Origin: Escherichia coli O157:H7
GTDB lineage: Bacteria > Pseudomonadota > Gammaproteobacteria > Enterobacterales > Enterobacteriaceae
Direction: 5' to 3' (one strand)
Assembly (NCBI RefSeq): GCF_013167455.1
Contig: NZ_CP038328.1
DNA length: 64,000 nucleotides
Position numbers: made by a program. Positions 12,001 through 15,000 of the stretch are shown here, piece by piece. The stretch's first letter is position 1; each line of letters starts with the position of its first letter.

Positions 12001-15000
12001 TCCTTACTTAAATTTATCATCGCCACTAACGTTTTCCTTATTGATGCTATTCATTTTGGACATGCAGATCACTTTTGATGACTCACGGAATATCAGCAAA
12101 AATGATTGCGGCAAATCCTATCACCTGGCGCAATAAAAAATCACGAAAAATAAGCTGAAATAAGGACTCAAAAAAACAACTAAGAGTTATTGTTTTTTCA
12201 TCGAACGGCGAAGAACCTAACTTACTAAAACACAATAATTTAAAAGTCCCCCATCCTTGCTCCTTGGGTGAAAAAAATCCAATTTAGAGGACGTCTGAAA
12301 TGATATGTAGTTTTCTGTACGACATCATTTCAGACATCCGAATAAAACAACAAAGTTGGTGAGTTACAATTAATTTAAATCTTATTATTTGATTAACAAA
12401 GCATCATCATTACTGCATCTTATTCTCTATATCTTTTACGTCGGGGTAGATTCTTTATGGTCATTACGGGCAGGCGACATTTCATTATATTACCATTTGC
12501 ATTCACGCATGTAACCCTTAAGAGTTATATAAAAAGGAAAGAGTTCTTGCTCATGGTATTACTGAGATCGGATTAACCATGAGGTTAGCTATATAGAGAG
12601 CTTTGGCTTTGCGACAATTGGCTTAAGCAGCCACATTATGCCTGGCTTATCGTTGAAAGGGAGAAAGAAGAGCAAAACGGTTTGGCAAGCTTTCATTCCC
12701 ATCTAATAGCAATCACCGCTATACATCATCCCTTAACGTATTCTGGTCTTCATAAAAATGTTATTCTAAATTAAAGATTGTAATGATTTTAATAATGTTG
12801 TTATTATTTTGCAACAAATCAATCTAACACAATGATTATTCGCGATTTTTATTAGTTAAGAGGAATTGTTTTTACAGATTGCGCTACAATTCCGCTCATT
12901 TCTCACCACAGGAAAAGCTGAAGTAATCTTAAATGACTGTATTAACCCTTTTCTCCGCTGCCAGCACTCTTAAATATCGTTGTTTTATTCTTATAAAAAC
13001 GGCTTTTTTGACATAAAAAGTAATAGGTTCAGCCATTATGCAGAATTTACAACCTGAGAAAATCGCAAAAAACACTCTTATTCAGAATAAAACTCTGTTT
13101 ATCATCTTTCGGCAAGCATTAAATTACTATATTACCGTTCAACATTAGTATGAATGAAAATTCAATTGTTATACATGTGATGAATGTCATATATTGTGCT
13201 CATCGATTGCAGGACATCGCTATTCTTTTAGAGATACAGATATCACGCTGTTACTCTCTAATATAAAGAACACGCAAAGATTAGTTGTGTTACTGCAGTT
13301 GTTATGTCGCATATGGAATGCCCATTGTTACATCTTTAGTAAAAAGCTTTATTCACTTTCAAAATTTTTACTCCATGAAGATGGGCTGTTTTGCTGCAAG
13401 CAATTGAGTTAGTGCAATGAACAAGAACTTACTAACAAGGGTAATTATCATTTCGGATGATCTATATTACCTTCAGGGATTAAGTGCAAAACTAGGTCAC
13501 CATTATCGTTTTTTTATTGAGTGTTTTTTTTGTTCTCAAAATGCATGCAATAATGACCTAAGTACACTTAGATTTGACAACCGCTTTACAAAAAACGTAC
13601 TTCTTGTCGCAGTGGATGACGTAAGTATACTTGCAAAACTGCCAGATTTGGCCAGGTTTTTAATGATTGTTTCACTAAGAAAGATGAAAAACAGAAATAT
13701 CTTCTTTTCACTTTCAGAGCAAACATTCATTAGCCGATATATAAAATTGAATAAACTCATTACTTTGATTAAAAGTACTGATAAAGACCAGCAAGTCAGG
13801 CAGGTGACTCTGACAAGGTATGAGTGGGATATCTATTACTTATATTTTAAGATAGATAACAAAAGAATATTGCACACCCTGCTAAAAAAGGATGTCAAGT
13901 ATATTAGTCACTATAAAATATCAGTTTTTAACAAGTTTGAAATTGCTTGTGATAGTGATGGCTTTTACATTTTCAAGGCACTTATACAGTTAAGGAGATT
14001 TACCGGTTTTAAAAACGTCAGATTGTATCAATTGCATTAATTAACTCGTTCTATATTAACTCTAAATTTCAAGGATATTAATATGTTTTCTACTTTCAAA
14101 AAAGCAGCTCTGCTGGCAGCTATTGCATTACCTTTTTCAACTATGGCTGCGCCTACAGTCACTTTTCAGGGTGAAGTAACCGATCAGACCTGTTCCGTAA
14201 ATATCAACGGTCAAACCAATTCAGTAGTATTGATGCCGACCGTAGCCATGGCTGACTTCGGTGCAACTTTAGCTGATGGTCAGAGCGCAGGCCAGACGCC
14301 GTTTACGGTTTCTGTGTCTAACTGCCAGGCTCCAACTGGTGCAGATCAGGCAATCAACACCACCTTCCTGGGCTACGACGTTGACGCTAGCACGGGTGTT
14401 ATGGGAAACCGTGATACCAGCAGCGATGCGGCGAAAGGCTTTGGCATTCAGTTAATGGATTCCAGCACTTCTGGTAACCCAGTAACTCTGGCTGGCGCGA
14501 CTAACGTACCGGGTCTGACCCTGAAAGTTGGCGATACCGAAGCCAGCTACGACTTCGGTGCGCGTTACTTCGTTATCGATAGCGCTGCTGCCACTGCCGG
14601 TAAAATTACCGCTGTCGCAGAATACACCCTGAGCTACCTCTAATTAATCTACTGGCTGGCAGTAAATGCCAGCCAGTATTTCTTCGCACAATTAATAGTG
14701 ATTTTTCATGGACATGGAAAAGATAAGAATGAACATTTTTGCATATTTACTGGTACTTGTATTTTCCATGAGCATGAGCAGCAGCGCGTTTGCCAGCGTG
14801 GTAATGACCGGAACCCGTATTATTTTCCCTGGTGACGCAAAGGAAAAAACCATCCAGTTGCGAAATACCAGCGATCAGCCCTATATCATTAATATCCATG
14901 TTGAGGATGAACGTGGTTCTGACAAGAATGTACCGTTTATGCCAACCCCGCAGACATTTCGCATGGAAGCTGCCGCAGGTCAGGCGTTACGCCTGCTCTA

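Follow-up and report, generated by a model that had tools for sequence, protein, structure and literature searches.

A conserved inverted repeat upstream of otpA in O-island 47 of Escherichia coli O157:H7 as the possible first hairpin of a structured leader RNA

The window analyzed here (the whole stretch of DNA under study, 64 kb in length) corresponds to O-island 47 (OI-47, z1528-z1556; S-loop 71 in Sakai) of Escherichia coli O157:H7. Our subject is an inverted repeat, denoted IR1, which is located in the spacer between the divergent genes otpA and ECs1281; many O157:H7 chromosomes are 100% identical to the window across 1.6 kb around this repeat. In the literature, otpA and otpB correspond to ECs1282-1283 and the loc6 fimbrial cluster to ECs1276-1280, with ECs1281 located between them, and OtpA/OtpB are known as a bona fide two-partner secretion system of this organism. 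On the same strand as otpA and 3' of it, otpB is followed by acyl-carrier and ketosynthase genes, a chaperone-usher operon follows ECs1281, and grvA (z1531, ToxR-like) and vmpA (encoding an EAL protein) lie 8-11 kb further along the window. OI-47 affects type III secretion, motility and acid resistance via GrvA and VmpA, and induction of loc6 at 14 C and by lettuce lysate has been reported. The island was found in 380 of 5426 complete E. coli genomes, in which the spacer is always present as one collinear copy. The features from which the analysis starts are the following (aa, amino acids).

8214..12026, minus strand: otpA (ECs1282 / Z1542), TpsA exoprotein, annotated as filamentous-haemagglutinin-type TpsA
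12027..13416 (1.39 kb), strand not applicable: intergenic spacer between otpA (ECs1282, minus) and ECs1281 (plus)
12289..12339, minus strand: IR1 / hairpin P1, core arms 12293-12304 and 12324-12335, recognized by fold and covariation
13417..14040, plus strand: ECs1281, 207-aa orphan regulator annotated as hypothetical, first gene of the loc6 fimbrial operon

A preliminary description of this region had reported a perfect 12-bp inverted repeat about 270 bp upstream of otpA, and both the repeat and its location are exactly as described there: the arms GTCTGAAATGAT (12293-12304) and ATCATTTCAGAC (12324-12335) are separated by a spacer of 19 nucleotides (nt), and the complete repeat lies 267-313 nt ahead of the GTG at 12026. 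This GTG is the start codon of otpA, an assignment that is backed by a conserved AAGGAA Shine-Dalgarno (SD) sequence and by the conserved N-terminus among the homologues. The repeat extends to 16-nt arms, complementary in 15 of the 16 positions (12289-12304 / 12324-12339). Perfect 12-bp inverted repeats with spacers of 3-40 nt occur twice in the 64-kb window, compared to 0.28 expected, and such a repeat appeared in 0.9% of the first-order Markov simulations of the 1390-nt region (P ~0.009). Folded as RNA, IR1 yields -28.5 kcal/mol for the minus strand (z -7.65) and -23.3 kcal/mol for the plus strand (z -5.2). The resulting hairpin, P1, has an 18-bp stem on the otpA-sense strand, topped by a 1-nt bulge, a 3-bp apical stem and an 8-nt loop, and a U7 run is located 13-20 nt downstream of the stem on this strand. 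IR1 is a single-copy element, with one place per genome in all 380 island-bearing E. coli genomes.

Comparison of the E. coli alleles shows that the 11-bp core of each arm is unchanged and that substitutions next to it mostly preserve the pairing. The commonest non-O157 allele is a perfect 16-bp repeat, from which the O157 allele is one transition away, giving a G.U pair on the minus strand. Among the alleles, the pair 12293/12335 changes from G-C via G.U to A-U, 12290/12338 from G-C to A-U, and 12292/12336 from A-U to G.U; in one allele, a C-G pair is gained at 12288/12340, resulting in a perfect 17-bp repeat, and in the locus denoted L087, the outer pair 12289/12339 changes from G-C to G.U. 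Haplotype d carries a true unrepaired mismatch in the stem. Across seven haplotypes, 90.9% of the cells in the P1 alignment are paired and four pairs are changed on both sides (a count reached by 13 of 500 shuffles), with a covariation score of 0.126 (reached by 4 of 500). Where one side alone has changed, the result is G.U on the otpA-sense strand in 4-5 events versus 0-1 on the other strand, a difference that does no more than suggest a preference for the otpA-sense strand; the sense fold is better than the antisense fold in 6 of the 7 haplotypes.

A more stringent comparison is provided by a diverged lineage (L026, L027, L089-L092, from several metagenomes), in which OtpA is 89% and ECs1281 55% identical to the O157 proteins and the DNA around IR1 is ~45-50% identical. 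In L026, the 9-bp core TGAAATGAT/ATCATTTCA is identical to that of O157 in 18 of 18 positions, the spacer is again 19 nt long, and the repeat is located 268 nt from the start codon, compared to 270 nt in O157. The 19-nt apex differs in sequence, yet an apical stem of 5 bp, in which one A-U pair is swapped for G-C, still closes an 8-nt loop; the corresponding stem of O157 has 3-5 bp, and its loop is likewise 8 nt long. Given that the spacer is self-complementary in O157 and also, with another sequence, in L026, it is part of the structure, and in these comparisons IR1 behaves as a hairpin of ~51 nt and not as two bare half-sites.

Three islands within the spacer are conserved between O157 and L026, namely 12027-12195, IR1 itself and 13112-13210. 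By following these islands, we identified a second inverted repeat, IR2 (10-bp arms complementary in 9 of 10 positions, with a 19-nt spacer), located 40-90 nt before the otpA start codon, together with further conserved elements between IR1 and otpA and just upstream of IR1.

12340..12400, minus strand: conserved block upstream of P1, with GTTTGTTAA invariant in three lineages
12164..12280, minus strand: middle domain, multibranch, helices 2-6 of the RNAalifold consensus, recognized by RNAalifold and shuffling
12128..12156, minus strand: U-rich block, sense UUAUUUUUCGUGAUUUUUUAUUG, with two U-tracts, each a predicted anti-SD
12058..12118, minus strand: IR2 / hairpin P2, plus-strand core arms ATCACTTTTG (12067-12076) and CAAAAATGAT (12097-12106)
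12034..12039, minus strand: Shine-Dalgarno AAGGAA of otpA, the same in L026 and L034, AAAGGAA in L028 and L029

IR2 is retained in O157, L026 and L034 (a metagenome contig), where the three 19-nt spacers are unrelated in sequence and each extends the stem. The hairpin P2 folds with -19.9 kcal/mol in the sense and -13.5 kcal/mol in the antisense orientation in O157 (-23.2 vs -15.9 in L026); the sense fold is better by 6-9 kcal/mol in the E. coli alleles and L026 and by only ~1 kcal/mol in L034. Both repeats contain the heptamer AAATGAT, of which the 400 nt preceding otpA hold 3 copies, compared to 0.33 expected. P1 and P2 are also complementary to each other, 5' arm to 5' arm and 3' arm to 3' arm. 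In EDL933 (CP008957.1), P1 corresponds to 1436048-1436098 (plus strand), P2 to 1436269-1436329 and the otpA start to 1436361; in Sakai, numbered as in PMC5286369, P1 corresponds to 1349621-1349671.

The 320 nt upstream of otpA were folded with RNAalifold using an alignment of six E. coli haplotypes and L026, with controls generated by column shuffling. In the consensus structure, P1 and P2 flank a multibranch middle domain, and a conserved U-tract forms a long-range helix with the Shine-Dalgarno region. The sense strand yields -68.5 kcal/mol (z -6.2) with 18 pairs changed on both sides, whereas the column-shuffled alignments yield -41.9 +/- 4.3 kcal/mol with 8.0 +/- 2.6 such pairs (maximum 14), and the antisense strand yields -51.8 kcal/mol (z -2.3) with 8 pairs. 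The middle domain alone has a sense energy of -18.0 kcal/mol (z -1.85) with 14 pairs changed on both sides (5.6 +/- 2.1 after column shuffling, maximum 10) versus -10.2 kcal/mol (z +0.72) and 3 pairs for the antisense strand, and the support for this domain comes largely from the single diverged lineage L026. The next 320 nt upstream (-640 to -321), which served as a negative control, yield -26.2 kcal/mol in the sense orientation (z +0.6) with 12 pairs (14.7 +/- 2.9 in shuffled alignments), and there is no excess of structure on either strand. Because the signal is present in the 320 nt next to otpA and absent further upstream, the structured stretch has its 5' edge at IR1.

Helix 6 of the predicted leader corresponds to a further inverted repeat, A6CAA-N10-TTGT6 (12170-12198), consisting of A-T pairs and one C-G pair only; its counterpart in L026 is AAAATAA-N10-TTATTTT, in which the single C-G is replaced by T-A.

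The U-rich block is nearly invariant in O157, L026 and L034. At 37 C, the predicted pairing of the Shine-Dalgarno sequence is 0.78-0.87 in these three lineages versus 0.23-0.33 in the homologues without this leader. The predicted anti-SD pairings are UUUUUUAUUG with CAAUAAGGAA, for the six E. coli haplotypes and L026, or UUUUUC with GGAAAA when L034 is added; the anti-SD helix has no covariation support because its sequence is invariant.

The hairpins upstream of otpA thus exist and are conserved, the changes among alleles and lineages keep the pairing, and the structure signal is strand-specific, with no continuation upstream of P1. A cis-regulatory RNA structure is expected to keep its pairing through compensatory changes on one strand, and this is seen here across few independent lineages. 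The preliminary description proposed an operator or an RNA structure for the repeat; this was the right pair of options, between which the self-pairing spacer, the compensatory changes and the strand-specific signal make the evidence lean towards RNA. We tentatively suggest, with slightly less than even confidence, that a structured otpA leader RNA of ~320 nt occludes the Shine-Dalgarno sequence by means of a U-tract and that IR1 is its first stem-loop from the 5' end (P1). Transcription would begin upstream of P1, where the block at 12340-12400 is a candidate site for the leader promoter or for a regulator, and the leader would consist, in the direction of otpA, of P1 (12339 to 12289), the middle domain, the U-rich block, P2 (12118 to 12058) and the Shine-Dalgarno sequence. 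P1 and P2 are alike in build, with A/U-rich arms containing AAAUGAU/AUCAUUU and a 19-nt apex. One U-tract would pair with AAGGAA, so that the ribosome-binding site would be hidden by default; this sequestration would limit translation of otpA and, through polarity, keep otpB and the acyl-chain genes 3' of it poorly translated too. P1 would most likely be an autonomous 5' domain that protects the 5' part of the transcript or, together with P2, docks a leader-remodelling factor.

Several observations weigh against a leader of this kind. In effect, two to three lineages contribute independently to the covariation, and the sequences that were scored are also those from which the structure was derived. 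In a control region, the antisense strand upstream of ECs1281, more pairs were likewise changed on both sides than in any of the shuffles; given that this count is noisy in the control, we relied on it only together with the energy score. The core arms of IR1 are invariant and do not covary, and the spacer is exactly 19 nt long in every lineage. In L034 (OtpA 79% identical), P1 is degenerate, with 2 mismatches and 2 wobbles, and falls outside the minimum-energy fold, the motifs and the 19-nt spacing being kept; P1 is absent from the OtpA homologues of L028 (82%) and L029 (74%), whose upstream regions are unrelated, and from those of other genera (Enterobacter, Kosakonia, Mixta, Rahnella and others). 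The U-tract that serves as the anti-SD partner differs between the predictions, and the predicted pairing of the O157 Shine-Dalgarno sequence shows no in silico response to temperature (0.80, 0.78 and 0.77 at 25, 37 and 42 C). Upstream of P1 (12340-12400), no convincing conserved -35/-10 pair was found in the alignment read by eye, and the published data sets, as far as they are listed, include no transcription start site (TSS), RNA-seq, CLASH (crosslinking, ligation and sequencing of hybrids) or small-gene record for the spacer.

The foremost competing explanation, which we consider unlikely but deserving of attention, is that IR1 and IR2, whose centres are ~228 bp apart and one of which is just upstream of the Shine-Dalgarno sequence, are DNA operators for a dimeric or tetrameric regulator of the otpA promoter, possibly acting through looping, with ECs1281, RcsB or another island regulator as candidates for the binding protein. 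Symmetric half-sites with fixed spacing and conserved sequence are indeed what is expected of a palindromic operator. The 11-bp arm cores are invariant in the E. coli haplotypes, and a 9-bp core in L026, amid ~50% divergence of the flanks; the 19-nt spacer is exact in IR1 and IR2 in all lineages and AAATGAT is common to both; the distance from IR1 to the start codon is constant within 2 nt; L034 keeps the IR1 motifs and their spacing with part of the pairing lost; and a regulator that is LuxR-type by fold, ECs1281, is encoded next door. However, an operator made of two half-sites does not need spacers that are self-complementary in each lineage despite their unrelated sequences, the changes in the outer stem are compensatory, and folding and covariation are strand-asymmetric beyond what double-stranded DNA explains. 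Moreover, the heptamer points inward in IR1 (with a 19-nt gap) and outward in IR2 (with a 25-nt gap), so that one symmetric dimer would be unable to read both repeats alike. LuxR-type dimers use palindromes of ~20 bp, and half-sites 28-31 bp apart are atypical for them.

Less probable still is the view that the palindromes have no function and are either a relic, for example, the former terminator of a lost gene, or the product of a template switch (a quasi-palindrome), surviving by chance in an AT-rich spacer that is probably covered by H-NS. Template switching can perfect a palindrome without selection, and the DNA around the repeats changes at the neutral rate or faster (up to 9.6% divergence overall and 20% locally vs 3-6% in third codon positions). 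The degeneracy of IR1 in L034, its absence from more distant homologues, the unrepaired stem mismatch of haplotype d and the lack of an expression record among the published data listed also fit this view. Yet chance survival poorly explains the identity of 18 of 18 core positions between O157 and L026 where the neighbouring DNA is ~50% diverged, the retention of the apical stem with another sequence, the conservation of a second hairpin of like design in three lineages, and the confinement of the structure signal to the 320 nt adjoining otpA.

That IR1 is the 3' end of a separate transcript directed towards otpA (the terminator or processing hairpin of a small RNA or of a spurious transcript) or an insulator between the divergent operons is very improbable: the strong minus-strand hairpin, the U7 run 13-20 nt downstream of its stem, the promoter-like sites on the minus strand at 12763-12814 and the unrelated long hairpin found in Enterobacter homologues at -272 to -213, right after a co-oriented upstream gene, are compatible with it, but the stem is A/U-rich with a U-tract that is not adjacent, a terminator scan found 0 terminator-like sites in 11900-13600, neither conservation nor structure signal is seen upstream of IR1, promoter-like matches are no commoner than in shuffled sequence (7 vs 7.7), and the structure signal continues downstream of IR1.

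Among the known systems, the otpA leader, as predicted, would work most like the Shine-Dalgarno-occluding leaders of the FourU type, RNA thermometers represented by Salmonella agsA and by chuA of enterohaemorrhagic E. coli (EHEC) (PMC9002310). As in those leaders, the prediction pairs a U-run of the A/U-rich otpA leader, with at least 4 U involved, to the Shine-Dalgarno AGGA through A-U and G.U pairs, and the gene is a horizontally acquired one of the virulence type. Unlike FourU elements, the predicted otpA helix does not melt at physiological temperature in silico (0.80 to 0.77), is long-range and closes over another hairpin, and belongs to a much longer leader (~320 nt), known from prediction.

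The hairpin P1 taken by itself can be compared to the 5' hairpin of ompA, a stabilizing stem-loop of the 5' untranslated region (UTR): it is likewise a stable and autonomous stem-loop and bounds the conserved, structured part of the leader on the 5' side, but it is far larger (~21 bp), and its position relative to the 5' end of the transcript is not fixed by any mapped TSS. The looping operators of lac (O1/O3), gal (OE/OI) and deo resemble the otpA region in having two related palindromes, here ~228 bp apart, with one near the gene start and with arms and spacing invariant; the self-complementary spacers of IR1 and IR2, the opposite orientation of their half-sites, the strand asymmetry and the putative nature of the cognate protein set the otpA region apart. 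With Rho-independent terminators and attenuators, P1 shares a strong hairpin and a U-run somewhere downstream, but its stem is A/U-rich, an 8-nt loop sits on a 21-bp stem, the U-run starts 13 nt after the stem, and the hairpin does not pass the consensus scan. Finally, the region resembles the targets of xenogeneic silencing by H-NS in its GC content of 32-37%, its location in an acquired island between divergent operons and the lack of detected expression in the published data listed; such silencing would concern the region as a whole and leaves the specific conserved hairpins unexplained.

Two hairpins and a predicted trap for the Shine-Dalgarno sequence make up a defined cis-element and give a concrete handle on the timing of otpA production, with precise and inexpensive targets for mutation in the stems of P1 and P2 and in the anti-SD U-tracts. 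If the leader is real, it would explain why the otpA system looks silent in laboratory data sets. A bolder elaboration, to which we assign little probability, is that the twin hairpins are read by a dedicated island-encoded factor, or switch between alternative pairings, within a lineage-restricted regulatory leader, which would couple translation of OtpAB and of the acyl-chain genes to the loc6 fimbrial and cyclic di-GMP module (VmpA, GrvA, ECs1281). Beyond this locus, the significance is modest, given that Shine-Dalgarno-occluding structured leaders and palindromic operators are both familiar devices; for those interested in EHEC islands and two-partner secretion, the detail of the leader is new and its kind ordinary.

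Other identities of IR1 were considered and rejected. A repeated or mobile palindromic element, such as REP/BIME (repetitive extragenic palindrome/bacterial interspersed mosaic element), MITE (miniature inverted-repeat transposable element) or an insertion sequence (IS) end, is incompatible with the presence of exactly one copy in each of the 380 genomes. An invertible promoter switch similar to fimS is incompatible with the collinearity of every listed place among these genomes across the whole 1.39 kb, and no recombinase gene is annotated in the 25-kb neighbourhood of IR1. The 43 matches of the 9-bp core to viral contigs are unrelated, with evenly scattered spacings, which argues against a phage or mobile origin, and the plasmid matches proved to be only misfiled pieces of the E. 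coli chromosome. Searches of the Rfam 15 families yielded no match at or above the gathering score, only sub-threshold chance matches to microRNA models (mir-3047, 24.4 bits vs 53). Esr41 belongs to OI-43 and, with Rfam giving no match, neither it nor another known EHEC small RNA accounts for the repeat. Scans with the Fur, CRP, RcsAB, IHF and Lrp consensus sequences found no match overlapping IR1, and neither an RfaH ops element nor a high-affinity H-NS motif is present near it. A third half-site at 13447-13457, within ECs1281, is attributable to coding constraint (VIIISDD), its nucleotides not being conserved in L026. An upstream open reading frame (ORF) coupled to the otpA start (MSKMNSINKENVSGDDKFK) was likewise rejected: it is not conserved in L026, L034 and L028, unlike the GTG frame and the Shine-Dalgarno sequence.

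The Enterobacter loci L009-L011 have a long hairpin of their own (-19 to -26 kcal/mol), ~272-213 nt upstream of the otpA homologue and directly after the upstream gene, with sequences that differ between species. In two Enterobacter species, a mini-palindrome, GTCTGAAT-GCCA-(A/G)TTCAGA, is located ~187-167 nt upstream, and it is degenerate in E. cloacae. It has GTCTGAA/TTCAGA in common with IR1 (7 nt), and TCTGAA...TTCAGA occurs nowhere else in the 166 kb of these loci; we provisionally treat this likeness as a coincidence (post hoc P ~0.01).

The preliminary description further characterized the spacer as AT-rich and without a credible ORF, and we find it to be both. The GC content is 32-37% (11900-14100) versus ~50% in the flanking genes, with the AT-rich tract not ending at 13416 but continuing across the ECs1281 ORF to ~14100. 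The ORFs are at most 72 aa long, and other alleles carry frameshifted or truncated versions of all but three. Of these exceptions, two overlap the start of otpA and one (12389-12514, 41 aa, TTG start) sits in DNA that is not alignable with the diverged lineage L026. No RefSeq feature falls within the spacer in the records listed, and the Sakai small-gene study lists no small protein encoded there. A decayed ECs1281 paralogue was rejected as well, with tblastn returning nothing but noise (E 1.4 or worse). Relatives of the spacer in other genera were found neither by blastn nor by tblastx, and it showed no homology to the upstream regions of OtpA homologues from Enterobacter, Kosakonia, Mixta, Rahnella and others.

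No other part of the locus evolves as fast as the spacer, which shows up to 9.6% divergence overall and 20% locally, compared to 3-6% in the third codon positions of otpA and ECs1281; outside its three conserved islands, it changes at the rate of these third positions or faster. Compared with the loci L002-L008, the stretch 12200-13120 is a mosaic of divergent haplotypes: the blocks 12822-12919 and 13020-13119 are ~20% diverged, where the flanking genes are 98-100% identical and the ECs1281 protein can even be identical. Recombination breakpoints are located inside the spacer, as in L005, which changes haplotype near 12440 and 13220.

No published work on this intergenic region was found in the literature searched. 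The TSSs listed in the Cappable-seq supplements include none for the spacer, and the rows listed in the study PMC10469882 contain no sense TSS for otpA. In supplementary file 7 of that study, the listed rows give four antisense TSSs in otpA, at 1437317, 1437626, 1437886 and 1438899 of EDL933 CP008957.1, and one antisense TSS (1433659, plus strand) within the fimbrial genes. The AT content, well above average, is that expected of H-NS-silenced xenogeneic DNA, and silencing of the spacer by H-NS, as surmised in the preliminary description, is consistent with this composition, from which alone it is deduced; the lack of TSS, small-gene and CLASH signals among the data listed is also in line with it. 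The literature searched contained no H-NS chromatin immunoprecipitation or hns transcriptome data for OI-47.

The spacer was also thought to contain the promoters of both divergent genes. This is plausible from position for both genes, and a conserved candidate is present for ECs1281, but no convincing otpA promoter was detected, and the spacer contains 7 promoter-like hexamer pairs, compared to 7.7 expected in shuffled sequence. An extended -10 element, TGaTAGGAT (12123-12115), was rejected as the otpA promoter: although conserved, it includes a GGAU that, by prediction, forms the base of the P2 stem, so that the conservation may be structural. On the ECs1281 side, the relevant feature is the third of the conserved islands.

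13112..13210, plus strand: conserved island upstream of ECs1281, with promoter-like TTGTTA-18-TATATT at 13166-13195 and CRP-like TGTGATGAATGTCATA at 13176-13191

The promoter-like site at 13166-13195, for which the L026 counterpart is TTGTGA-18-TATATT, is a reasonable candidate for the ECs1281 promoter. The CRP-like sequence TGTGATGAATGTCATA has 1 mismatch to TGTGA-N6-TCACA, overlaps the promoter-like hexamers and is not conserved in register in L026. For the 320 nt upstream of ECs1281 (13097-13416, plus strand), consensus folding yields z -3.65 for the sense and +0.09 for the antisense strand, with no significant covariation; the 5' UTR of ECs1281 may also be structured.

The description of ECs1281 as a LuxR-like fimbrial regulator is borne out by the fold of an AlphaFold model but not by its sequence, which matches no Pfam or NCBIfam profile. 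The O157 protein has no match to either collection, including GerE (PF00196), and its family is very small (11 sequences by exhaustive search), with GerE reaching E ~0.03 in 2 of the 11 members and the RcsB C-terminal domain E 0.43. An AlphaFold2 model based on the 11 relatives has a predicted local distance difference test (pLDDT) score of 83.8 and a predicted template modelling (pTM) score of 0.79, compared to a pLDDT of only 38.8 with a 3-sequence alignment. The top Foldseek matches of this model in the PDB are EvgA, RcsB, FixJ, StyR and NarL, at probabilities of 0.96-1.0. The model thus supports a NarL/FixJ (LuxR-type) fold for ECs1281, with a receiver-like N-terminal domain and a C-terminal four-helix helix-turn-helix domain.

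Distant relatives of ECs1281 (L035, L036 and L037; 23-32% identity) are encoded directly after an EAL-domain gene or one of similar size. In L037, the relative directly precedes a fimbrial operon, and in L035 and L036 it is adjoined by a Trans_reg_C gene (ToxR-like, 296 aa) and a 160-aa gene. This layout mirrors the arrangement of grvA, a 163-aa ORF and vmpA in OI-47 and, as a comparison of gene order, suggests a conserved ToxR-like / EAL / LuxR-like module.

The island also varies outside the spacer. OtpA consists of 892 aa instead of 1270 aa in some E. coli strains (loci L030-L033) and of 893 aa in the metagenome contig L034, and otpB is split in two in L032 and L033. In strain ESDR8 (L007), an IS66 (ISEc8) element resides within the usher gene, and the usher gene is frameshifted in the O157:H7 strain TR01 and intact in the window.

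The only other perfect 12-bp inverted repeat of the window, TACTGGCTGGCA-GTAAA-TGCCAGCCAGTA at 14650-14678, is followed by TTTCTT and is located 7 nt past the stop codon of the gene for the loc6 major fimbrial subunit, ahead of the chaperone gene. It resembles the attenuating terminators by which chaperone-usher operons usually set the ratio of subunit to assembly proteins.

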